The notes under the pieces are model-generated. The model made no database searches and was not told the origin of the DNA. It worked only from the letters and a program-made list of their open reading frames with translations. The position numbers were made by a program, and so were the translations under genes. This document shows, in pieces, positions 4,156-45,079 of a stretch of DNA of 64,000 nt (the stretch's first letter is position 1; every line of letters begins with the position of its first letter). The stretch is from Desulfuromonadales bacterium (GTDB lineage: Bacteria; Desulfobacterota; JAENJC01), in NCBI GenBank assembly GCA_919902985.1, contig CAKKSC010000022.1:3436-67435 (forward strand), in the 5' to 3' direction.

Positions 4156-6009
4156 CTACAGCAAAAGTTCCATTGTAATGCACGTTCCTTCACCCGGATT
4201 TGACCGGATATTCAGTCCTGCATTCATTTCCCTGCATCGTCGCTCCATATTTTTCAGGCCGTGGCCACCGCCTGTCCGCCGGGCTGAATCAAAACCCCGC
4301 CCATCATCCTTAATTTCAAAAGTTATCTTTTCTGCATCATCTCTGATGTTTACAGTAATTGTCTTTGCATCCCCATATTTGATAGTATTGGTCAACGCCT
4401 CCTGGAATATGCGAAGCAGGTTGAGACTGACAATATGGGGAACCATCCGCTCTTCATTGATCAGTCTCCTCGATACGCTGCACTCGAGACCGGCCATCAG
4501 GGCAACTTCTTTGGTCTTTTCTCCCAGGTGAAACGACAGCACTCCCATCGTTGCCATTTCACCTTCCATGGTGAGTATAAGATTTCTCAGCTCTGCCAGA
4601 CCTTCGTCCAGTACCCCTCTCAGTTGAGAAAGCCGCATTTCCGGTTCGGGCGCGCCTCTGAGGATAAGATCAACCAGCATGACGCCATTGGAAAAATTTC
4701 TGCCCAGGCCGTCATGAATTTCTCTGGAGATTCGCTCCCTTTCATCCGTCACAGCCTGTTTCGTTTCCATTTCCCGCATCTGCGCATGTGAGATCTCGAT
4801 CTCTGTTCTGGCTGCATTGACTCTATTTTCAAGCTCCTTGTTCAATGCCTCCGCTTCATCAAGGGCCGTAATAAAGCGCCGTATGAGATGCCAGGCCATG
4901 ATCATGAAGATAATCGGCGCTGAATAGTGATTAAGGTGAAAGTCGGTAAAGCCTGTAGATGAAATAAGCCGGGACTGTAAGATCCAGTCATGCACAGCAG
5001 TTAGAAGTACAATGGCGATGCCGAGGCCCATCACCCCCGACTCCCGGCTCCCCTCGACCTTCCAATGGCGAAGGAGTTGGAAGGCAGTATAAAAACCGAG
5101 AAGCATGGAGCCGCTATACCAGAAGACCGCCACACCGTTCATCTCGCCCAGTTCGGCAAAGGCCAGTGCAACCCCCCCTGAAACAGCAAAAAGGAGATAA
5201 ATCGATTCGAGTACTCTTCTTTTGCGCTTAAGAAAACGGTGCGAGAATATGGCAAGAAAAATGGTCCACCAGGTCAGGCTCCCATATGCTACCCAGTCCC
5301 AGGCCTTCGCCGATAGAGGGATGTCATGAATAAACAGGTTAAGGCTAAAAATAGACCACATCAGAACGGAAAGCGCAAACCACAGGTAGGAGGTATCGTT
5401 GCGTCTTCTGACCCAGAGAGCAAACATGAAGACGCCTACAGCAAGAGTCTCCGGGAAAAGCATGGCGCTGATATCGTTCTGAAACAGCTTTCTTAACTCG
5501 AATCGACGCTGAAGCAGCTTAATATCACCTAACTGGAGAGGTGATAGCTGGATATCATAAGGATAACCTTTAATGCGCACATCGATAATGTTCTCACCGG
5601 AACGCCACAGCGCCGGAGGAACGGTAAAAAGGAGCGGCCGGTTCCAGTTGCGCGCAACAGGCTCTTCAAATGAGCCGCCGTCGCCGATAAACTGCCCGTT
5701 AAGAAAAACTGCGGCATTCATACTGAGTTTTTGAAGATAGATCCCCCAGGTATTTGCTGGGCAGGCATCCAGTTGAAGATGAAGACGATACCAGCCGTTT
5801 TGCCCTTTTTTGTAAAGCCCCTTTTCCCAATGATGGGGGAGCGTCAGCGGACGCCATTGATCCGGTGGGAGGATAGGGGGAGTTGAAGCATTGGAAAGGA
5901 CAAATCCCGCCTCTGAAATATCACGGAGACCGCTGCTATCGGAAGTTTGGCCGCCAAAAGCCACAGATGGTGCAAGGAGTAGCAGGAAAAAAACGAGCAG
6001 TTTATTCAT
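4156..6009 (-). CDS. 7TMR-DISM sensor histidine kinase (HisKA_3/NarX-type)
   Basis: Signal peptide, periplasmic 7TMR-DISM-like domain, 7 TM helices, then HisKA_3 (ERERISREIHDGLG) and HATPase (GGGHGLKNM). Likely partner of the NarL-type RR at 2164. Confidence 0.8.
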   Translation of the reverse strand: MNKLLVFFLLLLAPSVAFGGQTSDSSGLRDISEAGFVLSNASTPPILPPDQWRPLTLPHHWEKGLYKKGQNGWYRLHLQLDACPANTWGIYLQKLSMNAAVFLNGQFIGDGGSFEEPVARNWNRPLLFTVPPALWRSGENIIDVRIKGYPYDIQLSPLQLGDIKLLQRRFELRKLFQNDISAMLFPETLAVGVFMFALWVRRRNDTSYLWFALSVLMWSIFSLNLFIHDIPLSAKAWDWVAYGSLTWWTIFLAIFSHRFLKRKRRVLESIYLLFAVSGGVALAFAELGEMNGVAVFWYSGSMLLGFYTAFQLLRHWKVEGSRESGVMGLGIAIVLLTAVHDWILQSRLISSTGFTDFHLNHYSAPIIFMIMAWHLIRRFITALDEAEALNKELENRVNAARTEIEISHAQMREMETKQAVTDERERISREIHDGLGRNFSNGVMLVDLILRGAPEPEMRLSQLRGVLDEGLAELRNLILTMEGEMATMGVLSFHLGEKTKEVALMAGLECSVSRRLINEERMVPHIVSLNLLRIFQEALTNTIKYGDAKTITVNIRDDAEKITFEIKDDGRGFDSARRTGGGHGLKNMERRCREMNAGLNIRSNPGEGTCITMELLL

Positions 6010-6230: not shown

Positions 6231-7379
6231 GTGACAGAAGACAGGATCAGGGAAATCATACATGAAGCGGAGGAGTGTTATAACAGACTCGCTTCGACCA
6301 TAGTGGAGATACCCGATTACACACTCGACAGCCTACCAAAAGAAAAAAGTAACAGCTTTATAAATGGGGGACTTTATGAGTTCACAGCATACAGGAGGGA
6401 GTTTAAAGCACGGCTCATCTTCATCTGCCTTAAGGCCCCGGATGAGCAGGCCTATTTTCTGGAGAGGTTCAGGATTTACAGCATGGAAAGCCCTCAGGGG
6501 ATTGAAAGGGCAGATGACCCGGCGTATTTAAAAGGGACCGGGGAATCGGTTTATCTGAGGATACCGGCTGGTTCCACAATCCTTGATATCGGATGTGGGA
6601 CCGGTAAGTATCTTAAGGTTATGAATGGCAGAAATATTACTACTCTGGCCATGGATATATCAAAAGAGCTTATAGATGAGGACAGGAAGTCGCTGGATTT
6701 GAAGGGTGTCCGCTTCTTCCCAGGCGACTGTCTCGACCTGCGCTTTCTGAAAGAGAAGGAACTGGACTTTCTCACCGGGGTCAACATCCTGAATGTCCTC
6801 TATCCGGAGATGGTTGAGTCCTTGCTGGATCAGGGGGCAAGGGTGGCAAAAGGCGGTCTGTTTGCCTTTACACTCCCTGCCAGGGCAGATATTTGGACTG
6901 AGTACTCGCCGGATTTGGAGGACCATTCAGGAAGGGGGTTGAAAAGGGGCTCGGATGAGTATCTTGAGGTCGCCTCCAATCAGACCTTTCGTGGTCAGAT
7001 GAGGCTCTTCTCCCATGTCAGGAGACTGTGCTCTGAAAAAGGCTGGAAATGGAGGATATTCAGGTTTGTAGATAGCTCCATCCTGGACTCGTTTAAGTTT
7101 AACAAGACCCTGGATGTTAGATATCTGAAGGAAGGGGAGGATTCGCTCTTAAAGCTCCTTGAATTCCCTGTAAGGAGGGCAGGCCATTCGGAAGTCCCGC
7201 CAGAGGGTTCATTCCTCGTGTGCGCCATAGGTTACGGCTTGGAGGTGTACTTTGGAGGGGATGAGCTTCCGCCAGCTGAAGAGGTCAGTTATTTTAATGC
7301 CGATGCGCTGTTCGAGAGATTCGAGATCAGACAGGAGCAGAAAGAGTCCATAGCCCGCTGGAACCTGCCTTTTGTATAG
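6231..7379 (+). CDS. class I SAM-dependent methyltransferase-domain protein
   Basis: Motif I ILDIGCGTGKYL and acidic motif II LAMDIS; N- and C-terminal regions unassigned. Confidence 0.6.
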   Translation: MTEDRIREIIHEAEECYNRLASTIVEIPDYTLDSLPKEKSNSFINGGLYEFTAYRREFKARLIFICLKAPDEQAYFLERFRIYSMESPQGIERADDPAYLKGTGESVYLRIPAGSTILDIGCGTGKYLKVMNGRNITTLAMDISKELIDEDRKSLDLKGVRFFPGDCLDLRFLKEKELDFLTGVNILNVLYPEMVESLLDQGARVAKGGLFAFTLPARADIWTEYSPDLEDHSGRGLKRGSDEYLEVASNQTFRGQMRLFSHVRRLCSEKGWKWRIFRFVDSSILDSFKFNKTLDVRYLKEGEDSLLKLLEFPVRRAGHSEVPPEGSFLVCAIGYGLEVYFGGDELPPAEEVSYFNADALFERFEIRQEQKESIARWNLPFV

Positions 7380-18967: not shown

Positions 18968-19609
18968 TTATTTACTTCCGTACCGATGCCGCAGGAACTC
19001 AATAACCCCTGGAAGGATCGAAACAAATATGATACCTGTTATGACAAGTGTAAAGTTGTGCTTGACGGCAGGAATATTGCCGAACATATACCCTCCAAAT
19101 ATGAAGACAGCTATCCAGGCCACCCCTCCAACGATGTTATAGTTTATGAAGTGCCAATATGACATGCTTCCTACTCCAGCCACAAACGGGGCAAAGGTAC
19201 GGATTATGGGCATGAATCTGGCTATAACTATGGTCTTCCCACCGTGCCTTTCATAGAACTGATGGGTTCGTTCAAGGTATTCCCTTTTAAAAAACCGTGA
19301 CCCGCTCTGCTGAAAGACCTTCGGCCCCATATAGTGCCCTATCCAGTAGTTCAAAGTATCACCTGCCACAGCCGCTATAGTGAGAAGTCCAAACAGCCAG
19401 AAAGGGTCGAGAAAACCCATGGCGGCAATTGCCCCTGCCGCAAAGAGGAGGGAGTCTCCTGGAAGGATGGGCATTATGACAAGCCCTGTCTCACAAAAGA
19501 TGATGAGAAAGAGGACCATGTATGTCCATGTTCCATAGCTCTGTATAATGGTATTCAGGTGCTTGTCGAGGTGCATGAATAGATCGATGAAGCCTGTCAA
19601 TAATTCCAT
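18968..19609 (-). CDS. DedA/SNARE-associated family membrane protein
   Basis: Characteristic DedA motifs (FCETGLVIMPILPGDSLLFAAG). Confidence 0.8.
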   Translation of the reverse strand: MELLTGFIDLFMHLDKHLNTIIQSYGTWTYMVLFLIIFCETGLVIMPILPGDSLLFAAGAIAAMGFLDPFWLFGLLTIAAVAGDTLNYWIGHYMGPKVFQQSGSRFFKREYLERTHQFYERHGGKTIVIARFMPIIRTFAPFVAGVGSMSYWHFINYNIVGGVAWIAVFIFGGYMFGNIPAVKHNFTLVITGIIFVSILPGVIEFLRHRYGSK

Positions 19610-19618
19610 TGCTCTCCT

Positions 19619-20401
19619 TTAGATCGGAACAAAGTGGTTGAGAGGGTGGTTCCCCTTTCCAATGTCGTCAAACCCGCTCTTTATTCCATTAAGTACATAT
19701 CCCTTGGCCTTCGATACCGCTTCCTTAAGTTCTAACCCCCTTGCAAGGCCTGCGGCAATGGCGGCTGACAATGTGCAACCTGTCCCGTGGCTTAACTTCT
19801 GCACCCTTGTGGCCTCATAAGTCTCAAATTTAATTCCGTCAAAGAGGATGTCGACGGCCTTGCCTTCAAGATGTCCGCCCTTTATCAGGACGCTTTTTGA
19901 GCCTGTTTTACTGAACAGTGCAGTGGCAGCCTCTTTCATGGAGCTTATGTCAGTAACCTTCATTCCCGAGAGGATTGATGCCTCAAGAAGATTTGGTGTG
20001 ATAATGGTGCATAGGTTAATCAGCGTATCTTTTAATATCTGTACAGCTTCCTCTTCCAGTAAAGGTTCCCCGCTGCCGGAAATCAACACCGGATCAAGGA
20101 CTATGTTGGCTACCTTCGTCTCCTCAATAAACTGGCTCACAGCAATGACATTCTCAAGGGTCCCCAACATGCCGATCTTTACCGCATCAATCCTGATATC
20201 CTCGTGGATGCTCTTAAGCTGCTTTACCAGAAAGGCAGAAGGCACATGGGAAACATCCTGGACACCAACTGTGTTCTGGGCTGTAAGAGAGGTAATGGCG
20301 GCCATTCCATATACCCTGTATGCGCAGAATGTCTTTAAGTCTGCCTGAATACCTGCCCCCCCTGATGGGTCGGAGCCTGCTATGGATAATACAGTTTTCA
20401 T
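19619..20401 (-). CDS. thiD: hydroxymethylpyrimidine/phosphomethylpyrimidine kinase
   Basis: LSIAGSDPSGGAGIQADLKTF and ribokinase-like fold motifs. Confidence 0.85.
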   Translation of the reverse strand: MKTVLSIAGSDPSGGAGIQADLKTFCAYRVYGMAAITSLTAQNTVGVQDVSHVPSAFLVKQLKSIHEDIRIDAVKIGMLGTLENVIAVSQFIEETKVANIVLDPVLISGSGEPLLEEEAVQILKDTLINLCTIITPNLLEASILSGMKVTDISSMKEAATALFSKTGSKSVLIKGGHLEGKAVDILFDGIKFETYEATRVQKLSHGTGCTLSAAIAAGLARGLELKEAVSKAKGYVLNGIKSGFDDIGKGNHPLNHFVPI

Positions 20402-21018
20402 ATTTGAAATGCCTCAAGAAACTTTCTTGTTGCTCCCTCTATATCATCTGCTTTAAGAATGGCAGATATCACAGCAGCGCAGTCGGTCCCGGTGTCTATG
20501 ACTTCTTTAAGGTTCTCAAGGTTTATCCCGCCTATGGCCACAACCGGAATATTTACACTCTTCTTTACTTCTCGTAGCGCCTGTAATCCCTTGGCCTCTT
20601 CGGCACCTGCTTTGGTCTCTGTTTTAAATACAGGGCCGAAACCGATGTAATCGGCCCCTTCCTGTTCCGCCTTTAACGCCTGTTCTAAGTCATGGGTCGA
20701 GAGACCTATCACCCTGCCCTTTCCCAAAATCTTTCTTGCCTCGGCAATCGGCAGGTCGTCCTGGCCAAGATGTACTCCATCTGCATTTGACAGCAGGGCG
20801 ATGTCCGCCCTGTCGTTTACTATGAATAGGGACCCAGCCTTTCTTGCAAGCAACCCGATCTCTCTGGACTGCCTCAGAAGCTCCTTTGATGAAAGCCCTT
20901 TCCCCCTGAGTTGTAGAACCCTTGACCCTCCGGCCAATACTCTTTTGGCAAGCTCAATATTCGACAGATCAGGGCGGATAGAATTGTCTATTATTGCATT
21001 GAGGCCCTTGATTTTCAT
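20398..21018 (-). CDS. thiE: thiamine-phosphate synthase
   Basis: FIVNDRADIA...GVHLGQDDLP motifs; overlaps thiD by 4 nt. Confidence 0.85.
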   Translation of the reverse strand: MKIKGLNAIIDNSIRPDLSNIELAKRVLAGGSRVLQLRGKGLSSKELLRQSREIGLLARKAGSLFIVNDRADIALLSNADGVHLGQDDLPIAEARKILGKGRVIGLSTHDLEQALKAEQEGADYIGFGPVFKTETKAGAEEAKGLQALREVKKSVNIPVVAIGGINLENLKEVIDTGTDCAAVISAILKADDIEGATRKFLEAFQI

Positions 21019-21619
21019 CTTTTCATCGATATCATGAATATCGCCGTATCCGCGAAGAGGTTTGGCAATATCTTTGTAACCCTGTTCTTCCTGATGAATA
21101 CCGAGTCCAGCACGCTGAACCCCCTTTTCTCACAATATTCCTCAAAGTCTTTGATGCTTATAAAATGGACGTTTGGGGTATTGTACCACATGTAAGGGAG
21201 GGAGGGGGTTACTGGTGTTATCCCTCCGAAGAAGACCTGCAGGCGCACAGGGTAATAACCGAAATTCGGGACCCGATTATTACCTTCCTCCCGACCCGGA
21301 GGGCCTCTTTGACAACATTGTCCGGGTTCCAGACCTGCTGGAGGCTCTCGTTCAGTATAACGTAGTCGAAAGAGCCATCCCCATATTCGGACAATCCGCT
21401 GTCAATGTCGCCGTGATGGACACTGAGCCCCTTTTCAACACAGGAATATATGGCCTGTTCGCTGAACTCTATCCCTTGCCCCCTGACCTTATTTTCCTGC
21501 TCCAGCAGGTAGAGGAGATCCCCTTCCCCGCACCCTAGATCTAGGACCGAGGCCCCTCCCATCACTATGCCGAGGATCAATTTATGGTCCAGCTTAATCT
21601 CAGTATTTACCACATTCAT
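21015..21619 (-). pseudogene. metW: methionine biosynthesis protein MetW, interrupted by a 1-nt frameshift
   Basis: ORFs 21218..21619 and 21015..21248 are the N- and C-halves of MetW. The frames join (…VIIG / PNFGYYPVRLQVFFGG) if one G is added in the C/G homopolymer at 21272-21274. Confidence 0.7.
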
Positions 21620-22791
21620 TCTTTTACGGCCTTTTCAAGGAAATGCCTGATGAGATGCCCTTGCTGCTCCGATTCAATGAGGAAGGAATCGTGGCCGAAG
21701 GGTGCATCTATCTCGCAGTATGTAGCGTTTAGCCCGGCCATCTTGCAGGCCCTTACGATCTCTTTTGAGTGCTCAGGCGGATAGAGCCAGTCGGTCTTAA
21801 AGGATATGACGAGGACTCTCATATCGCTTTTCTTTAATGCAGGATGCAGACCTCCGGAGACGTCGAAATGGTCCATGGACTTGCTGATATACAGATATGA
21901 GTTTGCGTCAAACCGTTCAACGAATTTATTCCCCTGGTAGCTAAGATACTGCTCTACACCAAAGACAGCAGAAGACTTAAAAGGCGCGGCAATGTCCCGC
22001 CTCTTCGTGGTTTTTTCTTCAAGGGATTTTTCACTCATGTAAGTGATATGCCCGACCATCCGTGCCACGGCAAGCCCCGCAGCAGGCGGCGGGCCGTCGT
22101 AATAATCGCCTGATTTCCAGTTCGGGTCCGCCATGATCGCCTGTCTGCCGACCTCATTGAAGGCGATCTGCTGCGGCGTATGTCTTACCGTTGCGGCTAT
22201 GGGTATGGCGCTTCTCACCCTCTCAGGATAGGATGCCATCCACTGCAAGGCCTGCATCCCGCCCATGGAGCCGCCTGCAACTGCAAGGAGCTTGTCTATG
22301 CCAAGGTGATCGATCAAATGCCTTTGGGCGTTTACCATGTCGTCTATGGTTATCATTGGGAACTTGAGACCATAAGGCGCGCCGGTCTCAGGGTCTATCG
22401 AAGAAGGCCCGGTTGACCCCTTGCACCCGCCGATGACGTTGGAGCAGATGACAAAGTATTTGTCGGTATCAAATCCCTTTCCCGGCCCTATCAGGATGTC
22501 CCACCACCCCGGCTTTTCAGTGCCTTCACGGAACCCTGCGGCATGGGCATCGCCTGAGAAGGCATGAAGCACCAGGACAGCGTTAGACCTTTCGCTGTTC
22601 AGGCTCCCGTAAGTTTCATACGCCAGCATCACTGGAGAGAGCTTCCCGCCGCTCAAAGTGACAAGCTCGTTAAACGTAAAATATCGCGTCTTTACAATTC
22701 CAAGGCCTCCAGCCTTCTCCATATCTGCTTGTTGAGCTGCTTTGCCAGTCGTATTGTGTATATGGTTCATTATATCAATTCTGTTTCTCAT
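21616..22791 (-). CDS. metX: homoserine O-acetyltransferase
   Basis: Alpha/beta-hydrolase with GGSMGGMQ nucleophile elbow and the VLVLHAFSGDAHAAG region; the exact start among several Met codons is uncertain. Confidence 0.85.
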   Translation of the reverse strand: MRNRIDIMNHIHNTTGKAAQQADMEKAGGLGIVKTRYFTFNELVTLSGGKLSPVMLAYETYGSLNSERSNAVLVLHAFSGDAHAAGFREGTEKPGWWDILIGPGKGFDTDKYFVICSNVIGGCKGSTGPSSIDPETGAPYGLKFPMITIDDMVNAQRHLIDHLGIDKLLAVAGGSMGGMQALQWMASYPERVRSAIPIAATVRHTPQQIAFNEVGRQAIMADPNWKSGDYYDGPPPAAGLAVARMVGHITYMSEKSLEEKTTKRRDIAAPFKSSAVFGVEQYLSYQGNKFVERFDANSYLYISKSMDHFDVSGGLHPALKKSDMRVLVISFKTDWLYPPEHSKEIVRACKMAGLNATYCEIDAPFGHDSFLIESEQQGHLIRHFLEKAVKE

Positions 22792-22865
22792 ATTTTGTCA
22801 GTGCCCATTATGTCAAAATCTAAAACTGTTTGTCCAGAAGATAAAAAAACAGGAGTCAGAATTTT

Positions 22866-22906
22866 ATTTGCAATCGCGGCTTGTTTTCAGTTAAGCTATA
22901 ATACTG
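22866..22906 (+). promoter_or_regulatory. conserved ~40-nt upstream element, copy 1 (metX / cupin divergent region)
   Basis: atttgcaatcgcggcttgttttcagttaagctataatactg; ~85% identical to copy 2 at 28569-28608; contains TATAAT. Confidence 0.4.
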
Positions 22907-22934
22907 TAATTCGGTGCTAAGAGGAGTCTAAGTT

Positions 22935-23372
22935 GTGCTAATCCGTCATAAAGGAAATTTCCGCTGGGAGAACATTTCTCTCCTGGCCTATAAGGAGGAG
23001 GGCAACTGCTTCAGGGATATCACCCGGCAGATACTTTTTGAAGGGGCTGCGAACATCCCCTGCCAACTAAGGTATTTTGAGATTGCATCCGGCGGTCATT
23101 CGACTTTGGAGCATCATGAGCATCTGCATCTTGTGATTATTGCGAGAGGTGAAGGGCATGTGCTGATAGGGGATGAGATCCACAGTGTCAGGGAGAACGA
23201 TGTCATGGAGATACCCTCCCACACCTGGCACCAGTTCAGGGCTACCTCGGACAACCCTCTCGGTTTTTATTGTATAGTGAACATCGAACGCGACCGGCCG
23301 GTAAGGCCGAGCGAGGATGATCTTAAATATCTGCGCAGGAAACCGGAGATAGCGGCGTTCATAAGGACATAA
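22935..23372 (+). CDS. cupin-domain protein
   Basis: Cupin His motifs (HHEHLHLVII...GDEIHSV...H); GTG start 9 nt after AGAGGAG. Confidence 0.65.
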   Translation: MLIRHKGNFRWENISLLAYKEEGNCFRDITRQILFEGAANIPCQLRYFEIASGGHSTLEHHEHLHLVIIARGEGHVLIGDEIHSVRENDVMEIPSHTWHQFRATSDNPLGFYCIVNIERDRPVRPSEDDLKYLRRKPEIAAFIRT

Positions 23373-23412
23373 ACGGACATCGAATCATAGAAAAAGCCTT
23401 TAAAGAGGTGAA

Positions 23413-25146
23413 ATGAAAAACGCTATAAAGATGGATACAAATAGCTTGAGACGCCTTGCCGGGTCGCGCTCTTTTGAGCGAGGTGAGGCGTATTTTGAAG
23501 AGGGAAGGGTCGGCAGTCTTGTGGAAGACAAGGGGAGGATCACGGCCTTTGTTCACGGATCGAGCAAATACAGGGTAAAGTTATGGGATGAGGACGGCCT
23601 TGAATACGAATGTTCATGTCCTGTTGGCCAGGACGGTGATTTCTGCAAGCACTGCGTGGCAGTCGGCTTGACCTGGTTGGCAGGAAATGACAATAAGGGA
23701 AAGAACGCCCTCTCTTCAGGCTCAAAGGTTACCTTTAAAGATATACGCTCCTATCTGCTGACGCAAGACAAGGAAATGCTGACGGAGATGATTCTGGATC
23801 AGGCTGCGGAGGATGAACGACTGCGGAATAAGCTCCTATTGCAGGCGGCAAGCAGTAAAAAGGAAGGGATAAACCTGACTGCCTACAGGCAGGCGATTGA
23901 CAATGCCGTAAGTCCCGATGGGTATGTTGGTTATTATGAGATGTACGACTACTCTCAAGGGATAGATGAGGTGGTCTCCTCCGTCTCCGAACTGCTGAAA
24001 AAAGGCAAGGCCGCTAAAGTAATCGAACTCTGTGAGTATGCACTTCGTAAAGTTGAAAAGGCAATCAATCACGTGGATGACTCGGACGGTCACATGGGCG
24101 GCATCCTGGAAAGGCTTCAGGAGCTTCATCTCTCCGCCTGCAAAAAGGCCAAGCCCGACCCGGAGGCGCTTGCAAAAAGACTGTTTGATTGGGAAATAAG
24201 CGGAGAATGGGACACCTTTTACGGCGCAGTCAAGGCCTATTCGGAAGTCCTCGGCAAAAAAGGACTTGCCTTATACCGGCAGTTAGCAGAGGAGGAGTGG
24301 AAAAAGATAAAACCTCTTGGCCCTGGTGAGAAAGACTCTGACCGGTACGGCATGCGATTCAGAGTAACGCATATTATGGGAGACCTTGCAAAGGAATCCG
24401 GCGACATAGAAGCCCTTGTGGCAATAAAGAGCCGCGACCTGTCGAACTCTTATGACTTTTTGAATATTGCCGAGATTTACAAGGGGTCCGGCAACAGAAA
24501 AAAAGGATTAGATTGGGCGGAGCTCGGCCTCAAGACATTCCCTAAAAAGCCGGATTCTCGGCTCATGGATTTTGTGGCAGAGGAGTATCACCATCTCAAA
24601 CGCCACGACGAGGCGATGAAGCTGATATGGATGCAGTTTGAGGAAAATCACACTTTCCATACGTACGATAAATTGAAAACCCATGCGGACAAGACCGGAG
24701 AATGGCCAGCTTGGAGGGAAAAGGCCTTAAAAGCGATACGCGAGGATTTAAAGCGCAACATGAAGGTCGGCAAGTCCCCCTGGCCCTGGATGAAAGGACA
24801 TGACCACTCCCTACTTGTTGAGATTTTCCTCTTTGAGAAAAATATTGATGTCGCATGGAAAGAGGCCAACGATGGAGACTGTTCCGACTCCCTCTGGTTC
24901 AGGCTTGCGGAGGCACGCGAAAAAGGCCACCCGAATGATGCCATAGACGTTTATCAGAAGATGATAAACCCTATTGTTGACCGGAAGAACAACAGCTCAT
25001 ACGAAGAGGCAACAAAGCTTATCATGAAGATTCATGCGTTAATGAAGAATATCGGCGAAGAATCAAAGTTTGCGTCTTATCTAAACTCCGTCAGAAGCGC
25101 TCATAAACCTAAGAGGAACTTTATGAAGCTGTTGGAGCGGATATAA
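23413..25146 (+). CDS. SWIM zinc-finger domain protein
   Basis: N-terminal SWIM CxC-Xn-CxH (YECSCPVGQDGDFCKHC) and a long alpha-helical C-terminal region; RBS AAAGAGGTG. Confidence 0.7.
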   Translation: MKNAIKMDTNSLRRLAGSRSFERGEAYFEEGRVGSLVEDKGRITAFVHGSSKYRVKLWDEDGLEYECSCPVGQDGDFCKHCVAVGLTWLAGNDNKGKNALSSGSKVTFKDIRSYLLTQDKEMLTEMILDQAAEDERLRNKLLLQAASSKKEGINLTAYRQAIDNAVSPDGYVGYYEMYDYSQGIDEVVSSVSELLKKGKAAKVIELCEYALRKVEKAINHVDDSDGHMGGILERLQELHLSACKKAKPDPEALAKRLFDWEISGEWDTFYGAVKAYSEVLGKKGLALYRQLAEEEWKKIKPLGPGEKDSDRYGMRFRVTHIMGDLAKESGDIEALVAIKSRDLSNSYDFLNIAEIYKGSGNRKKGLDWAELGLKTFPKKPDSRLMDFVAEEYHHLKRHDEAMKLIWMQFEENHTFHTYDKLKTHADKTGEWPAWREKALKAIREDLKRNMKVGKSPWPWMKGHDHSLLVEIFLFEKNIDVAWKEANDGDCSDSLWFRLAEAREKGHPNDAIDVYQKMINPIVDRKNNSSYEEATKLIMKIHALMKNIGEESKFASYLNSVRSAHKPKRNFMKLLERI

Positions 25147-25247
25147 AACAGAAAAATTTAGACCAAATTATTCCGGATTCTTTCGCTTGACTATATTGCA
25201 ACTATGCGTAATACTTATGCTTAAGTAACTAATAGCAGGAGGCCTTC

Positions 25248-25529
25248 ATGCAAACAGCAATTTTGAAAACTGAGATTTATAAAGAAATATCCTTGCTGCG
25301 TGAGGACAAGTTAAGCGAGGTCAAAGACTTCATAGAATTTATCCTATCCCGCCAGAAACCTTCAAAAAAGGATGTTGTGCAATTAAAGGGAATTTGGGCG
25401 GACAAGGGTTTTGAAAAAATCGGAAATCTTGAGAAAGAACTTAAATCCATTCAAAAAATGACAATGCAGTCTATTATAAAAGCGAAAGGGCCGTCCAGGT
25501 CAATATTGCCATTATGCGGGCCTTTGTAA
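25248..25529 (+). CDS. DUF2281-like small protein (antitoxin-type), with a non-native 3' end
   Basis: N-terminal [27 protein letters not shown] pattern; the tail overlaps a decayed ORF6N-family remnant. Confidence 0.4.
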
Positions 25530-25689
25530 AACTCAGGGAAATCCTATCGACACATAAAGAACTTGCCCATAAATTGGCTGAGCATGAAAGGAAGATCGAG
25601 AACACGATGGAGAGATAAAAGTAATCTTTGACGCCATCCGCGGGCTAATGGCGGCACCGGAGCCGAAAAAGAAGAAGATAGGGTTTTGA
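25445..25689 (+). pseudogene. remnant of ORF6N-family gene (C-terminal part, stop + frameshift)
   Basis: ...[41 protein letters not shown], then in the +2 frame VIFDAIRGLMAAPEPKKKKIGF*, matching the usual C-terminus of ORF6N-domain proteins. Confidence 0.5.
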
Positions 25690-25825
25690 GCCTCCCCTCT
25701 TAAGATAAGAGGGTTTATGCCCTGTGGGTAGATTGAGGGGCGTTATGAAAGTGTTCCAGTGGGGAGTGAATTAGCTATGGTGTCCCCGGAATTTCTGAAG
25801 GGCGTATTAGGGGCGCTAAAGTGGT

Positions 25826-26041
25826 GTGCGGAGCGGGCTTAAATCAATCTGTTTGCTAATAAATATGGGAAGTGTCCCTCATTTCCCCTCATTTCCCCTT
25901 GGTATTCAAGAAACAAAGAGCGACAGCGCAACTAAGAACCGCAGGTTCTTGCGCCGTCTTCAACAGATAGATAAGCTTCCAAAACGTGACCAGGAAGCCC
26001 TTTTACGGACGATTGATGCTTTTCTTGCAAAGGGGGAATGA
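25826..26041 (+). CDS. hypothetical small protein
   Basis: 71-aa ORF followed 3 nt later by another small ORF; low confidence. Confidence 0.25.
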   Translation: MRSGLKSICLLINMGSVPHFPSFPLGIQETKSDSATKNRRFLRRLQQIDKLPKRDQEALLRTIDAFLAKGE

Positions 26042-26044
26042 TCT

Positions 26045-26221
26045 ATGCACGATAATTTCGATTCAGCCTTTGACGAACTCCTGGAGAAGGGGTTTATTGA
26101 ATACGTCGAGAAAAGACCGGACGGCGAACCGGAATACCGGCTCACCGCCAAAGGAATTAAGCAAAAGGGGCAGTTGGACTTATTGGAGAGAAAGAAGGGG
26201 GCTAATCTGAACCACCCGTAA
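26045..26221 (+). CDS. hypothetical small protein (58 aa)
   Basis: MHDNFDSAFDELLEKGFIEYVEKRPDGEPEYRLTAKGIKQKGQLDLLERKKGANLNHP; below the ORF-track cutoff; low confidence. Confidence 0.25.
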   Translation: MHDNFDSAFDELLEKGFIEYVEKRPDGEPEYRLTAKGIKQKGQLDLLERKKGANLNHP

Positions 26222-26224
26222 AAA

Positions 26225-27001
26225 TTAAGACCCCTTGAGATAGTAATAGAACATCCAGCTATTTTTGAACATGTGAAATACTATCGGGTGAATCAAAGAA
26301 CCACGTCTTTTATATAGCCACACAAAAAATAAGCCGGTAATAAACACACCGATGCTTGGTAATAAAGGATAAAAATGGGAATGTGTCCAAAGCAAAGATG
26401 ACAGGATGGCGGCAGCAAACCCGCCTAATTTCCTATAAAGTGGGCTATAAAGTAATCCTCGGAATACCGTCTCTTCTACTACCGGAGCAAGAATTACTGT
26501 ATTAAAAAAGTAGAATATGAAGACCTTCCAATTCAGTGATTTAATTTCATTTAACTGCGAATCTAAGGGATTAATAATCAAGTTAAAATTCAAAAAATAG
26601 ATGCTTAAAGCATTAAATAGCAACAGAACTGCGCAGAGCTTCACAATAAAGGGAAACTGGTTAAGTTTCAGATTAAATGCCGTGATAACAGACACCCTGT
26701 GTCTGTAAAAATATACGAGTGCCAAGATAAAGATAAAAGCATAGTCAACAAACGCATAAACCTCAAAGTTAAAAGAATTATATTCAAAGTATTGAACAAA
26801 AGGAATAGCGCTCCAAAACCATTGAATTAAAGCGAGGCTTAGATAAAAGATTAATATTATTATTACAGGGATTAAGGACCAGTTCTGCCTTTTAAGTGAT
26901 TCACTCTCAGGCTCGAACCGATCCTTAAATAATGTCAGCAATAGAAGAAGAATGACAGGGAAATATAAATAGATAAATAGTTGAAAATAGGCCATCCGCA
27001 T
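26225..27001 (-). CDS. CPBP-family intramembrane metalloprotease (CAAX protease/Abi), candidate immunity protein
   Basis: EExxxR motif (VVEETVFRGLLY) and FxxxH (WTHSHF) in a polytopic membrane protein; sits directly downstream of the RHS C-terminal fragment. Confidence 0.8.
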   Translation of the reverse strand: MRMAYFQLFIYLYFPVILLLLLTLFKDRFEPESESLKRQNWSLIPVIIILIFYLSLALIQWFWSAIPFVQYFEYNSFNFEVYAFVDYAFIFILALVYFYRHRVSVITAFNLKLNQFPFIVKLCAVLLLFNALSIYFLNFNLIINPLDSQLNEIKSLNWKVFIFYFFNTVILAPVVEETVFRGLLYSPLYRKLGGFAAAILSSLLWTHSHFYPLLPSIGVFITGLFFVWLYKRRGSLIHPIVFHMFKNSWMFYYYLKGS

Positions 27002-27004
27002 CGT

Positions 27005-27763
27005 TTACTTACAACTTGGTGGTGGCGTCTCAGCATTTGCTGGCTTAGGAGTAAATATATTTGGGTCAAGTATTATTGGAAGAAGAGTTCCTTTTGTTAC
27101 AGTCCTCACAACAGGAGCAATAACACCCTTCCAAGCAGCCTGACCTACCGTCACACCTCCATTTATCCCGACTGTTCCAAACTGTCCAGGTATTGCATTA
27201 CCGCCGGATGGAGTCATACCATTTAAATTAGAAGGTAAAGGTCCCGTATAATTACTCGGCGGAGTATATGGATTATCCGGCATAACGTTCGTAAACCCTG
27301 GGCCAGTTATTCCGAAAAGACCCGAAGGGTCAATCCAGTTCACCGGGTTATTTCCCACGTACCCGTACAGGCTCATATCACCGCCCGCAAACCCGATTGG
27401 GTCTTTTGCCGTCCATTTCCCTGTCTCCGCATCATAATCCCTGGCCCCAAACCTCGTCAGCCTTGTATCCCTGTCATACAAGCCGCCCGCAAAGCCAAAC
27501 GGCTGGAACCCAGGATTGGTATCGTTTATGACTTCTCCGAATTCGTTATAATCAAGCTGCTGCGCTATTGCGCCTGTGGAGGCATTTACCACAAGGCGAG
27601 GGCTTCCAAGATGATCGGTAATGATGCGATATGTAATGCCGCCTTTAATCATGTACTCCGGGATGTTCGTATTGTTAGCATAAACAAATCTTGAAACTAC
27701 GTTTCCAGCGCCGTGGGAAACCTTGGGGACGTTGTTTCTATTCATGTAATTCTTATGTGACAA
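27005..27763 (-). CDS. orphan RHS repeat-associated core + C-terminal toxin domain (5'-truncated)
   Basis: [16 protein letters not shown]...[19 protein letters not shown]...[12 protein letters not shown] hallmark, then a ~105-aa Gly/Pro-rich C-terminal domain. No YD-repeat body; weak TTG start without RBS. Confidence 0.75.
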
Positions 27764-28112
27764 CGTTCAGAAATCCAGGACACTTCCGCTATTCCTCTAC
27801 AATCTTCATCAGTACGTTTTTTATATTAATTTGACGTTAGAATTATTGCGCAGGGGGATAAAGGAGTCAATAAAAATGTTTCGATTAATAAGCCTTTCCT
27901 TCGACAAGCCTGCGACGAGCTCAGTCGAGCACTCAGGATGAACGGTTGTTGAGAGGACATCAAGGACAACTCCACCCCCACCGCTGACAAAACCGCTTAT
28001 AGTTCAAGCGTTCAAAATATCTACATGTGTTTCTGATATTGCTAATGTTGGCTGCGAATAGGGATTAGTTGTAAACCCCTGTGGTGCGGTGAATGAAAAA
28101 ATATTACGTCCG

Positions 28113-28457
28113 CTAAACTGCCGCGTACACGACCTTTCCCGTCCTTTTGATTTCGCCCAGGAATGAAGCTTTGTCCGCCTTGCTGAACTCATCAGGAGAA
28201 CAGCCTATGGGTTCTACAACTGATAAATATTTTGATATCGCCTTTGCCAGTTTTTCCTGTATCATCAAGATGCCCTTCCCGGCAAAAGAGGGTGATATTA
28301 TTGCAATATCCACATCGGAGAACTCTCTTGGGTTGCCATTTGCATAAGAGCCATACAAAACGATCTCCTTGACCTTTATCTTGTGAGCCTCAAGGTCGTA
28401 AACCACATTATCTATTATCTTCTTTAAATCTCCCTGAGATAGTTTTGCTTTAGCCAT
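28113..28457 (-). CDS. nucleotidyltransferase-domain protein (MNT-type)
   Basis: LYGSYANGNPREFSDVDIAI minimal nucleotidyltransferase motif; no intact HEPN partner next to it. Confidence 0.75.
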   Translation of the reverse strand: MAKAKLSQGDLKKIIDNVVYDLEAHKIKVKEIVLYGSYANGNPREFSDVDIAIISPSFAGKGILMIQEKLAKAISKYLSVVEPIGCSPDEFSKADKASFLGEIKRTGKVVYAAV

Positions 28458-28568
28458 TTTATAACCTCTTTGCTTTTCTTTAAATGCTCTTCTGCGGTCG
28501 TTTTGTTAAACTGCCTGGCCAGTTTTGCAAAATCTTCCGGGTATCGAAATCCAGTATAAAGGAATTTC

Positions 28569-28608
28569 ATTTGCAATCACAGCATATTTTCAGTTAAGCT
28601 GTATCCTG
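28569..28608 (+). promoter_or_regulatory. conserved ~40-nt upstream element, copy 2 (metY leader)
   Basis: atttgcaatcacagcatattttcagttaagctgtatcctg, 25 nt upstream of the metY start. Confidence 0.4.
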
Positions 28609-28633
28609 CAATCTTGTATAAGGAGTTGAATAA

Positions 28634-29926
28634 ATGAAACAGGAAAAGGAATTCGGGTTTGATACTCGGATGGTGCATGCAGGGCATATCCCGGACTCGC
28701 AGACCGGATCACGTGCCGTCCCCATCTATCAGACCTCTTCATTCGTCTTTTTTGACGCGGACCACGCGGCAGAGCTTTTTGACCTCAAGCAGTACGGGCA
28801 TATATACTCCAGGATCAGCAACCCGACCGTCTCGGTATTTGAGGAGCGCATGGCTTCGCTGGAGGGGGCTACAGGTGCGGTGGCTACTACTACTGGGATG
28901 TCTGCACAGCTTACAGTATTCATGACCCTCCTTGAACCTGGGGATGAGGTGGTCTCATCAGCCCATCTTTACGGGGGGACGCTGGTACAGTTCACCCATA
29001 CATTGAAAAGAATGGGAGTGTCCGTGACCTTTGTAGACCCTACCGATATAGGAGCATGGGAGCGGGCGATAACTCCCCGCACAAAGGCCCTGTATGGAGA
29101 ATTGATCGGAAACCCAAGGGGTAGCATCATGGACCTTGAAAAGATCGGGGTCCTGGCAGCCCAGCACTGCATACCCCTCATCATAGACAACACAATGGCA
29201 ACGCCGTACCTTTGTCGTCCCATGGGTTTCGGGGCATCCATAGTGGTCTATTCAGCCACCAAGTTCATCGGCGGGCATGGGAACTCCTTGGGAGGCGTGG
29301 TCCTTGACTCCGGTAAGTTCGATTATTCCCGTTTCCCAGCCATTGCCGAGCCGTCTCCGAAATACCACAACCTTCGCTTTTACGATACCTTCGGCCATTA
29401 CGGGTTTCTGATGAAGTTGAGGGTTGAGACGGTGCGTGACACAGGCTGTTGCCTCTCTCCAATGAACGCCTTTCTTCTGATACAAGGGCTTGAGACCCTC
29501 TCTCTCCGAATGGAGAGACATGTGGAGAATGCGCTGAAGATAGCCACTTTCCTGGAAGAGCACCCGAAGGTCGCGTGGGTAGCCTATGCAGGCCTGCCCA
29601 GCCACCCCCAGCATGATCTGGCCAATAAGTATATGCCTAAAGGTCCCGGCGCAGTCTTCTCCTTCGGGCTTAAGGATAAGGCAGGCGAAGATGTGCGCCT
29701 GTCAGGTAAAAGATTTATCGAAAATTTAAAGCTGTTCAGTCACCTGGCTAACATCGGAGATGTGCGCAGTCTCGTAATACATCCCGCCTCTACCACTCAC
29801 CAGCAGCTAACTGATGAAGAGTTGAAAGCGTGCGGAGTGGGGCCGGAACTTATCCGACTATCAATCGGAATCGAAAATGTGGAGGACCTTCTATGGGATC
29901 TGGAACAGGCGTTTCATGCTCTATAA
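28634..29926 (+). CDS. metY: O-acetylhomoserine aminocarboxypropyltransferase (sulfhydrylase)
   Basis: PLP-dependent Cys/Met metabolism enzyme (SATKFIGGHG lysine region); RBS AAGGAG. Confidence 0.9.
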   Translation: MKQEKEFGFDTRMVHAGHIPDSQTGSRAVPIYQTSSFVFFDADHAAELFDLKQYGHIYSRISNPTVSVFEERMASLEGATGAVATTTGMSAQLTVFMTLLEPGDEVVSSAHLYGGTLVQFTHTLKRMGVSVTFVDPTDIGAWERAITPRTKALYGELIGNPRGSIMDLEKIGVLAAQHCIPLIIDNTMATPYLCRPMGFGASIVVYSATKFIGGHGNSLGGVVLDSGKFDYSRFPAIAEPSPKYHNLRFYDTFGHYGFLMKLRVETVRDTGCCLSPMNAFLLIQGLETLSLRMERHVENALKIATFLEEHPKVAWVAYAGLPSHPQHDLANKYMPKGPGAVFSFGLKDKAGEDVRLSGKRFIENLKLFSHLANIGDVRSLVIHPASTTHQQLTDEELKACGVGPELIRLSIGIENVEDLLWDLEQAFHAL

Positions 29927-29940
29927 CTCTTAACTCAGTA

Positions 29941-30432
29941 TTGACTAAAGAGCAGAAGGAACTGTATCAAAATCCGGAAGATATCCGGAAGATATTGAAT
30001 GAATGCAAGACTATCGCCATTGTGGGGCTGTCCACCGACAAGCAGAAGGCGAGCTATTTCGTTGCATCGTATATGCGTTCATCGGGATATCGAATCATAC
30101 CGGTAAACCCCAGGGCAGAGCGGATACTGGGCGAAACTTGTTACCCGGACTTGAAGAGCATTCCCGAACCTGTGGACCTGGTGGATATTTTCCGGCCCTC
30201 TTACGATTGTCTGGAGATAGCACAGGAGGCAATCGCCTGTAAGGTGAAGGCCGTATGGTTACAGCTTAAAATCATTAATGAGGAGGCGGCTGAACTGGCG
30301 CGAAAGGCCGGTTTACTCGTTGCGATGGACTGTTGCATTAAAATGGAGCATGGGCGTTATTGCGGTGGACTGCACGAAGCAGGGATGAATACCGAGATCA
30401 TCTCGGCCCAGCGGGTTCATCGGTTTGTTTAA
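29941..30432 (+). CDS. CoA-binding domain protein
   Basis: KTIAIVGLSTDKQKASYFVASYM...IIPVNP Rossmann-like CoA-binding motif; TTG start inferred; the ORF extends upstream into metY. Confidence 0.55.
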   Translation: MTKEQKELYQNPEDIRKILNECKTIAIVGLSTDKQKASYFVASYMRSSGYRIIPVNPRAERILGETCYPDLKSIPEPVDLVDIFRPSYDCLEIAQEAIACKVKAVWLQLKIINEEAAELARKAGLLVAMDCCIKMEHGRYCGGLHEAGMNTEIISAQRVHRFV

Positions 30433-44010: not shown

Positions 44011-45079
44011 AGGCATCCCACATCCCCCGTCCTTACGGGACATCGGCGAATTCGGCCTGATTAAGAGGATTGCACGGAAGGCAAAGAGAAAAGATACATC
44101 CGTCCTTATTGGGATCGGTGATGACGCGGCGGTGCTTACCCCCCCCATCTCCCCCTTATTAAGGGGGGGCGAAGGGGGGGTGGCGCCCCTACTGGTAACA
44201 ACAGATTCGCTCATAGAGGATGTGCATTTCAGACGGGATTATCAGCCGGAAGCCATAGGATGGAAGGCCCTGGCAGTAAATATAAGCGATATTGCCGCAA
44301 TGGGGGGAGTCCCAGAGCATTACCTCCTTTCGCTTGGGGTCCCGGAAGGGATATCAATCGAGTATATAGACCGTTTTGTTAGGGGTATGACTGAAGCAGC
44401 TGAGGAATATGGGCTCTCCATGATCGGGGGGGACACCACCTCATCTCCTGACAAGTTTTATATATCCGTTACCGTATTGGGGAAGGGAAGCGAGACCCTC
44501 TTACTAAGGAAAGGTGCAAGGGCTGGAGATGTTATATTTGTCACAGGGACGTTAGGGGATTCGGCGCTGGGGCTTAAGATATTAGAAGATAAGAAGGTAA
44601 GCATTTGGGAAGATGAACGTTTCTCAACCGCTCAACCTCTCAACCGCTCAACCTCTCAACTCATAAACCGCCATCTCAGGCCCACTCCAAGGGTCAAGGA
44701 AGGCATACAACTGGCAAAGACCGGCATGGTTACATCTATGATAGATATAAGCGACGGACTCCTGTGTGACCTTGGGCATATATGCGAAGAGAGCAGGGTG
44801 GGGGCCAGGGTACGGATAGACGAGCTTCCACTGTCACAGGGATTCAATACCTTCTCGGCCAAATATGGCGGAATAGAGCTTGCCTTGAGCGGTGGTGAGG
44901 ATTACGAACTTTTGTTTACAGTGCGAAGCAAAGATGTTAAAAGCTTCATGAGTATGACCGAAGGGACAAAATATACGCCCATAGGCGAGGTCATGAAGGA
45001 CAGGGTAATTGAGGTAATTGGAGCCGATGGCAGCAGGTATCTTCCCAAAAGTAGCGGATACGAGCACTTCAGAAGGTAA
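44000..45079 (+). CDS. thiL: thiamine-monophosphate kinase with two internal repeat insertions
   Basis: GIGDDAAVL...LVTTDSLIEDVHF and GGDTTSSPD ThiL/AIR-synthase-like motifs; 359 aa (longer than usual). Confidence 0.8.
   Translation: MRAEGIPHPPSLRDIGEFGLIKRIARKAKRKDTSVLIGIGDDAAVLTPPISPLLRGGEGGVAPLLVTTDSLIEDVHFRRDYQPEAIGWKALAVNISDIAAMGGVPEHYLLSLGVPEGISIEYIDRFVRGMTEAAEEYGLSMIGGDTTSSPDKFYISVTVLGKGSETLLLRKGARAGDVIFVTGTLGDSALGLKILEDKKVSIWEDERFSTAQPLNRSTSQLINRHLRPTPRVKEGIQLAKTGMVTSMIDISDGLLCDLGHICEESRVGARVRIDELPLSQGFNTFSAKYGGIELALSGGEDYELLFTVRSKDVKSFMSMTEGTKYTPIGEVMKDRVIEVIGADGSRYLPKSSGYEHFRR
44139..44180 (+). repeat. GC-rich palindromic mini-element in-frame in thiL
   Basis: CCCCCCCCATCTCCCCCTTATTAAGGGGGGGCGAAGGGGGGG encoding PPISPLLRGGEGGV. 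Confidence 0.6.
44623..44661 (+). repeat. tandem repeat (CTCAACCGCTCAACCT)x2.4 inside thiL
   Basis: ctcaaccgctcaacctctcaaccgctcaacctctcaact encoding QPLNRSTSQLINR. Confidence 0.6.

Follow-up and report, generated by a model that had tools for sequence, protein, structure and literature searches.

The window analyzed in this report, a stretch of 64,000 nucleotides (nt) of DNA from a Desulfuromonadales bacterium (GenBank assembly GCA_919902985.1, contig CAKKSC010000022.1), contains genes of the methionine pathway and a short non-coding element that occurs twice. The genes are metX and metW on the minus strand and, on the plus strand, a gene for a Cupin_2 protein that is separated from metY by several kilobases; these identities, proposed in a first-pass annotation of the sequence, were confirmed. 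Copy 1 of the element (22866-22906) precedes the cupin gene and copy 2 (28569-28608) precedes metY. Both are on the plus strand, and each quoted string was found once by exact search. The end of copy 1 is 28 nt from the GTG start codon of the cupin gene (22935), and the end of copy 2 is 25 nt from the ATG of metY (28634). A repeat search pairs 22859-22900 with 28562-28603 over 42 ungapped bases, of which 36 match (86% identity). When the window was simulated 30 times with a first-order Markov model, no direct match between 42-mers exceeded 30 of 42. The earlier description of a pair approximately 85% identical, in the same orientation and close to plus-strand start codons, was therefore correct. 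In the alignment of the copies, the 5' leaders remain similar as far as the ribosome-binding site, though more weakly and with gaps, and the homologous unit is thus a promoter with its leader of approximately 75 nt rather than 40 nt. There is no third copy in the window: a search for a degenerate pattern of 32 bases, in which up to 3 mismatches were allowed, returned these two alone, and beyond them the matches to the 14-mer core with 3 mismatches were at the chance level.

The element was compared in 13 distinct copies, where W1 and W2 denote copies 1 and 2 of the window and the others carry the number of their locus. Copies W1, W2, L004, L084, L086, L087, and L088 were located by protein homology, and copies L089/L092, L091, L093, L094, L095, and L097 by a DNA pattern that fixed the conserved bases. 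The nearest genome locus, L004, comes from a metagenome-assembled genome (MAG) labeled Deltaproteobacteria, and its metY is 91% identical to that of the window. At this locus a single copy of the element is followed by the cupin gene and, after 4 nt, by metY. The order element-cupin-metY-CoA_binding_2 with one copy was also found in L084 and L088. Locus L087 fits the single-copy arrangement up to the end of its short contig, and L086 has the same gene order with repeats of the repetitive extragenic palindromic (REP) type between cupin and metY. Using the window cupin as the query in tblastn, a cupin gene was located immediately upstream of metY in approximately 30 of 80 genome loci, from the Bacillota, Verrucomicrobiota, Armatimonadota, Nitrospirota, and other phyla. 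Because the relatives have a single copy and the two genes are adjacent in so many loci, cupin-metY is an old conserved operon and the split in the window is derived. As judged from these alignments, the two copies are paralogues of one promoter of one ancestral operon.

Within the block that separates the two genes (23373-28560), the GC content drops to 0.33-0.38, compared with approximately 0.49 in the flanks, so that the block is low in GC in part. It encodes a SWIM zinc-finger/DUF6880 protein, a DUF2281-like open reading frame (ORF), a CAAX protease-like membrane protein, a C-terminal Rhs/YD-shell fragment, and an MntA-like nucleotidyltransferase antitoxin. The junction between the cupin and SWIM genes in L091 is that of the window, as is the junction between the element and metY in L094, and the split is therefore common to a small lineage from groundwater metagenomes. 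Beyond the 42-nt block, the leaders of W2 and L094 align with the leaders of cupin genes and end in TATAAGGAGTTGA, which corresponds to the last codons and the stop codon of the L091 cupin gene (ATA AGG AGT TGA). In sequence terms, TATAAGGAGTTGA looks like the place where the cupin ORF is missing in front of metY. A 10-11-nt repeat, TATAAGGAGT, is present at the ribosome-binding site of the cupin gene as well as at that of metY, and W2 looks like a promoter-leader-cupin-metY arrangement that has lost its cupin ORF between these direct repeats. In L093 the cupin gene has been lost independently at the same repeat, and the leader is different and longer. The ancestral operon would thus have been broken in the lineage of the window, with the cupin gene still driven by copy 1. 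Approximately 5.2 kb of accessory DNA would have been placed after the cupin gene, and copy 2 with the cupin leader would have been fused to metY, the cupin ORF being lost by recombination between the TATAAGGAGT repeats. The sequence in which duplication, deletion, and insertion took place is our reconstruction. Two further observations concern the block itself. The gene for the CAAX protease-like protein adjoins the Rhs/YD-shell fragment, and the pair is a possible toxin-immunity remnant. The Logan contigs that bear metY end approximately 230 nt upstream of metY, within the MntA-like gene, which suggests strain variation at this position.

The pattern TTGnnA-N18-TAnnCT is invariant in all 13 copies. 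The first hexamer occurs as TTGCAA, TTGCCA, or TTGTAA, with changes at positions 4 and 5 only, and the second as TAAGCT, TACACT, TATACT, TAAACT, or TAATCT, with changes at positions 3 and 4 only. The substitutions are thus confined to the positions that carry the least information in the hexamers recognized by sigma-70. The 8-9 nt that follow the -35 hexamer are hypervariable and differ even among close relatives, and the promoter-proximal half of the spacer, TTTTCAGT (with G at -14), is conserved. Among the conserved stretches singled out within the element are TTTTCAG and ATTTGCAAT. Approximately 10 A/T-rich bases on the 5' side of the -35 hexamer are also conserved. Conservation ends beyond them, where the neighbors vary: the metX promoter in W1, L087, L091, L084, and L097, toxin-antitoxin genes in W2, L004, L093, and L094, and REP-like repeats in L086. 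It also ends just past the -10 hexamer, and the leaders that follow are rich in insertions and deletions; the distance from the element to the start codon ranges from approximately 25 to approximately 245 nt among the copies. Orthologous copies of the 46-nt block are 74-91% identical, whereas identity at the 4-fold degenerate sites of the cupin gene next to it is 44-77%. Purifying selection therefore acts on the block.

These leaders also hold a second TGCAATC / TGTAATTC box (28607-28613 and 22905-22912 in the window), which echoes the -35 region TTGCAATC at a distance of 35-37 nt downstream. It was found in W1, W2, L004, L091, L092, L094, and L095. The box was considered as a second operator and rejected, since it is missing from 6 copies and its spacing is variable.

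Taken together, both copies probably represent one ordinary sigma-70-type core promoter with a short leader, which was doubled because the operon broke in two and a copy stayed with each part. In both copies of the window, hexamers that resemble -35 and -10 elements (with A2 and T6 of the latter) are oriented toward the gene and separated by 18 nt, within the range of 16-19 nt. Across the alignment, the strong positions of the hexamers are fixed and the weak ones are free. A consensus scan with a threshold of 9 of 12 positions calls TTGTAA-18-TATACT in L086 and TTGCCA-18-TACACT in L084 promoter-like at the aligned positions. The transcription start and the sigma factor are what we infer from this pattern. 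RNA polymerase would start approximately 7 nt past the -10 hexamer, near 22904 (22903-22906) and 28607, and the resulting leaders of approximately 30 nt would carry a Shine-Dalgarno sequence only. The coordinates of the proposed elements and of the surrounding genes are presented in the following table.

Features of the window around the two copies of the element, with proposed promoter parts
Feature	Position	Strand	Basis or remark
metW	21015-21619	-	Downstream of metX
metX	21616-22791	-	Gene identity confirmed
Candidate metX-metW promoter, TGGACA-18-CATAAT with TG	22807-22836	-	Outside the repeated element
Copy 1 block (about -46 to about +1): A/T-rich tract, -35, spacer, -10; assigned to cupin	22858-22903	+	74-91% identity to orthologous copies
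Proposed -35 of copy 1, TTGCAA	22868-22873	+	TTG and final A invariant in 13 of 13 copies
Proposed -10 of copy 1, TAAGCT, 18 nt after the -35, G at -14	22892-22897	+	T1, A2, C5, and T6 invariant
Cupin 5' leader, short, with Shine-Dalgarno sequence GAGGAG at 22921-22926	22904-22934	+	Read from the sequence
Cupin_2 protein, 145 amino acids, GTG start	22935-23372	+	Match to 3jzv, E = 1.1e-43
Block of approximately 5.2 kb separating cupin and metY	23373-28560		Absent from L004, L084, L087, and L088
Copy 2 block; assigned to metY	28561-28606	+	L094 has an orthologous metY-proximal copy with the same junction
Proposed -35 of copy 2, TTGCAA	28571-28576	+	Sequence and alignment
Proposed -10 of copy 2, TAAGCT, 18-nt spacer	28595-28600	+	Sequence and alignment
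metY ribosome-binding site, TATAAGGAGTTGA	28617-28629	+	Same as the 3' end of the L091 cupin gene
metY, O-acetylhomoserine sulfhydrylase / homocysteine synthase	28634-29926	+	TIGR01326, 590 bits, above the cut-off
CoA_binding_2 protein, third gene of the operon	29893-30432	+	Gene order in relatives

Several observations weigh against this assignment. In the window, TTGCAA-18-TAAGCT agrees with the consensus at 7 of 12 positions, which is under the threshold of the scan, and the 18-nt spacer exceeds the optimal length. A better-looking TATAAT is found in copy 1 at 22897-22902, 5 nt downstream of the proposed -10. Moreover, ATTTGCAATC and ten bases of the spacer, TTTTCAGTTA, are conserved beyond the needs of the hexamers, the promoter-proximal half of the spacer more than would be expected for a plain promoter, and these extra bases may be read by a protein other than RNA polymerase. 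Finally, only the copies anchored by protein homology are unbiased, because the remainder were retrieved with a pattern that already fixed the conserved bases. The low score of the window hexamers also accounts for the statement in the first-pass annotation that no fit to sigma-70 could be made: this is accurate for the two window copies, and it does not extend to the aligned sites in L086 and L084. The option of a promoter, which that annotation had listed, is supported by conservation in front of methionine-pathway genes in relatives and by the finding that the element is not a generic repeat. Two other assignments of hexamers were rejected. The TATAAT at 22897-22902 has no -35 element at 16-18 nt, only 3 of 13 copies have its T6, and the corresponding bases of copy 2 are TGTATC. 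A minus-strand CTGAAA-18-TAAAAT inside copy 1 is not conserved, and its -10 is TGAAAT in 7 copies, including copy 2.

The extra conservation could also mean that the block serves, chiefly or in addition, as the operator of a methionine- or S-adenosylmethionine (SAM)-responsive factor; this operator would overlap the promoter, and the factor would have replaced the SAM-I riboswitch of more distant relatives. This is compatible with a promoter, and we regard it as possible though unlikely. The ten spacer bases TTTTCAGTTA and ATTTGCAATC are near-invariant while the adjoining 9 nt vary freely, and W1, W2, L004, L089/L092, and L094 share a partial dyad, TTTCAG-N12/13-CTGnAA, that extends from -21 to +6. 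In addition, the operon is regulated by RF00162 in the relative L101 and the clade of the window is riboswitch-free, which makes some other control plausible. The symmetry is not convincing, however: L084, L086, L087, and L093 lack the downstream arm of the dyad, and its spacing varies (12, 13, 14, or 18 nt). There is no regulator gene conserved nearby, and no other gene is preceded by a copy of the element, whether in the window, in approximately 70 kb of loci from the clade, or in the metagenome matches. A 16-nt block around the -35 of the metX promoter is likewise invariant, so that conservation beyond the hexamers is usual here. Each conserved 10-mer, allowing up to 1 mismatch, gave only chance-like matches inside genes in the window and the approximately 70 kb of clade loci. 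The element was seen solely before cupin and metY, originally parts of a single operon, although the metagenome pattern demanded the whole promoter. The suggestion of an operator shared by a regulon has thus gained no support so far, given that relatives have one copy and that the real metagenome matches precede cupin or metY only. A more specific form, in which ATTTGCAATC, TTTTCAGTTA, and the dyad constitute the operator of a new methionine-, SAM-, or methanethiol-responsive factor that was copied with the promoter at the split, seems to us rather doubtful; if it is true, that factor took over the control of cupin-metY from the SAM-I riboswitch in an uncultured groundwater lineage. Known operators fit poorly, as compared with the motifs of MetR, MetJ, and SahR/SamR in PMC4239095. 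For a site of a MetR-like (LysR-type) activator, ATGAA-N5-TTCAT, abutting the -35, there is a perfect ATGAAGTAATTTCAT in L086 (5932-5946) and a 9 of 10 match, ATAAAGGAATTTCAT, in W2 (28556-28570) and L088. The upstream half-site is missing in W1, L087, L091, L084, L097, L093, and L095, TTCAT is changed to TTTAT in about half of the copies, and MetR orthologues are described from the gamma- and beta-proteobacteria and the Rhodobacterales (PMC4239095), which also counts against such a site here. We consider a MetR site very improbable, and the palindrome in L086, W2, and L088 is probably a chance match in AT-rich DNA. Neither copy contains a tandem AGACGTCT octamer of the MetJ operator (PMC4239095). 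When the core and the palindrome of SahR/SamR were checked, the ATC that ends ATTTGCAATC was followed 10 nt later by TTT or TTC instead of completing ATC-N10-GAT, and no 20-bp palindrome was found in the element, where 20-24 bp is expected (PMC4239095).

A leader RNA was among the options of the first-pass annotation. Such a transcribed RNA acting in cis, for example a small riboswitch of the SAM type or a target of a small RNA, would agree with the finding of a short, conserved, non-coding sequence before methionine genes. The folding of copy 2, with an ACAGC/GCTGT stem, is slightly more stable than that of its shuffles (z = -2.3), but the z-scores of copy 1 are +0.7 and -0.1, and RNAalifold predicts 0 pairs when 12 copies are aligned. 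A fixed sequestering fold is not possible, because the Shine-Dalgarno sequence lies at distances between approximately 20 and approximately 240 nt. The ACAGC/GCTGT hairpin around TTTTCAGTTAA had appeared compensatory in W1, W2, and L004 and was rejected after L084, L086, and L087 were added; the stem is not kept in L084, L087, and W1. No Rfam family reaches its gathering threshold in the whole window, and none was detected at E <= 1 in 22780-22960 or 28458-28660, with RF00162 at 88 bits in L101 as the positive control for the scan. By these covariance-model scans, neither RF00162 nor another Rfam class of SAM or S-adenosylhomocysteine riboswitch matches in the window, and scans that took in the relatives found none in this clade. 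With no Rfam match at E <= 1, no consensus pair in 12 copies, and a variable distance to the start codon, a leader RNA is highly improbable. A leader peptide was also considered and discarded, because the ATG in the long leader of L004 (ATGAGCGAC...) is absent in L089/L092 (ACGAGCCAC). We assign a similarly slight chance to a sigma-54 promoter of the form GG-N10-GC with TTGCA as its -12 element. Copy 2 reads GGAATTTCATTTGCA, in which the GG-N10-GC spacing is correct, and there is a sigma-54 activator gene on locus L086. However, GG is found at -24 in 5 of 13 copies (W2, L087, L088, L091, and L094). Copy 1 reads AG at this place and L086 reads GT, and the GC of the -12 element is also lost in L086 (TTGT). 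The conserved block runs 25 nt past the supposed -12, which sigma-54 does not explain. Sigma-54 was rejected, as the geometry suits copy 2 but is not conserved. Least credible is a generic dispersed repeat or mobile promoter, of the REP type or resembling a miniature inverted-repeat transposable element (MITE), that lies near met genes by chance. A real family of G/C-rich palindromic REP-like repeats does occupy intergenic regions of the window and of relatives, but the element itself has two copies only in the window and has neither terminal inverted repeats nor palindromic structure. A metagenome scan with ATTTGYMATYNNNNNNTNTYTTCRGTTANNCT returned 9 loci, of which 7 lie before cupin or metY and 2 are identical AT-rich chance matches. 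Occurrence at many unrelated loci had been set beforehand as refuting; the 7 real matches are each in front of cupin or metY. The REP/MITE-like repeats (...CCCCTCTTTAGTAAAGAGGGG...GCCGAAGGCGGGG...) are located at 44127-44170, 52328-52371, 52874-52917, 55586-55639, and 57176-57238 in the window, and the same family is present in relatives at L084:1-40 and at L086:4850-4900, 5730-5760, and 6590-6645.

Copy 1 had also been described as the divergent promoter region of metX-metW. This could not be sustained: the element points away from metX, which has its own candidate promoter, TGGACA-18-CATAAT, and the element is found without metX in L004, L086, L093, L094, and L095. The sequence TGTTTGTCCAGAAGAT in the metX promoter block is invariant in the window and in L084, L086, L087, L088, L091, and L097. 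Two observations were made on the genes downstream of this promoter. The metW gene of the window is split by a 1-nt deletion near 21272 into ORFs of 133 and 77 amino acids, and the gene in L091 is intact and encodes 200 amino acids (GGG-TCCCG versus GGGTTCCCG). The break is either a real frameshift, which would make metW a pseudogene, or an assembly error. In the window (18968-21018) and in L091, the genes thiE-thiD-dedA come after metX-metW on the minus strand; in L086 (8482-10616) they come after metY-CoA_binding_2 on the plus strand. A rearrangement by inversion or translocation has taken place around the met genes within the clade.

The operon that the proposed promoter would drive has a recognizable function. 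The window cupin is strongly homologous to Rru_A2000 from Rhodospirillum rubrum (PDB 3jzv, E = 1.1e-43). Rru_A2000 is a methylthioxylulose 5-phosphate (MTXu-5P) methylsulfurylase that releases methanethiol, which O-acetylhomoserine sulfhydrylase couples to O-acetylhomoserine to form methionine (PMC4958253). In L008 and L034 a gene for a RuBisCO-like protein (RLP) is directly upstream of cupin-metY, as the methylthioadenosine (MTA)-isoprenoid shunt predicts. In L101-L103, where the cupin is 66% identical, a SAM-I riboswitch (RF00162) precedes the cupin-metY-CoA_binding_2 operon. On the strength of the homology, the RLP neighbors, and the SAM-I riboswitches, the genes behind the element form a genuine methionine operon, one that is regulated by SAM in relatives. 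The clade of the window is riboswitch-free, and any regulation therefore acts at initiation or is absent. The occurrence of the cupin-metY-CoA_binding_2 unit in many phyla suggests, from gene content, a salvage of methanethiol or sulfur that is coupled to MetY and to the synthesis of homocysteine and methionine. The closest relatives of metY other than L004 (L005-L010 and L076, 80-86% identity) come from Bacillota MAGs, Propionispora, and Desulfitobacterium. The cupin gene is present at these loci too, and scans of the surrounding 10 kb show no riboswitch of Rfam. The operon may have been transferred laterally between phyla.

The element is of a known kind in a new instance, and the operon and the interchange of riboswitch and promoter are more interesting than the repeat itself. 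The cupin-metY-CoA_binding_2 operon is a widespread and little-noted three-gene unit; a literature search for a described cupin-metY operon yielded solely the work on the R. rubrum shunt (PMC4958253). The control of this one operon appears to be interchangeable among lineages: relatives use a SAM-I riboswitch, and the clade of the window would use a bare promoter. What had resembled a regulon motif would be one promoter doubled by the break-up of an operon, which advises caution in reading short non-coding repeats as operators or riboswitches. The locus would also provide an example of how the two parts of a split operon can stay expressed: promoter and leader are duplicated, and an ORF is lost precisely between similar ribosome-binding sites.

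In comparison with known systems, the element resembles a sigma-70-type promoter whose -10 is weak and, with its G at -14, partially extended. The hexamers TTGnnA and TAnnnT are 18 nt apart with an A/T-rich tract upstream, and the element is oriented toward the gene at 60-70 nt before the start codon and is conserved from about -46 to +1. It differs in that the window copies match 7 of 12 positions, that C5 of the -10 and the ten spacer bases are over-conserved, and that the start site is our estimate. The operators of MetJ, MetR, SahR, and SamR in Proteobacteria are likewise cis-elements before methionine genes, but here the AGACGTCT repeats are absent, ATGAA-N5-TTCAT is found in a minority of copies, and ATC-N10-GAT is absent. 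The SAM-I-controlled operon of L101-L103 has the same three genes in the same order, with the regulatory region directly 5' of the cupin gene, whereas the clade of the window has no riboswitch and a leader of approximately 30 nt with no conserved structure. In the MTA-isoprenoid shunt of R. rubrum (RLP Rru_A1998, cupin Rru_A2000, together with O-acetylhomoserine sulfhydrylase; PMC4958253), a homologue of the window cupin is likewise paired with a sulfhydrylase. The genes of that shunt have far-apart locus numbers (cupin A2000, sulfhydrylases A0774 and A0784; PMC4958253). The clade of the window differs from R. rubrum in having no RLP gene beside the operon, and the substrate of the window cupin is predicted from homology. 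Finally, the duplications of the SAM_alpha riboswitch (PMC4239095) provide a parallel in which a cis-element was copied before a second methionine gene within a lineage. At the present locus it is a promoter with its leader that would have been copied, and the copying accompanied the break-up of an operon rather than the recruitment of a gene to a regulon.

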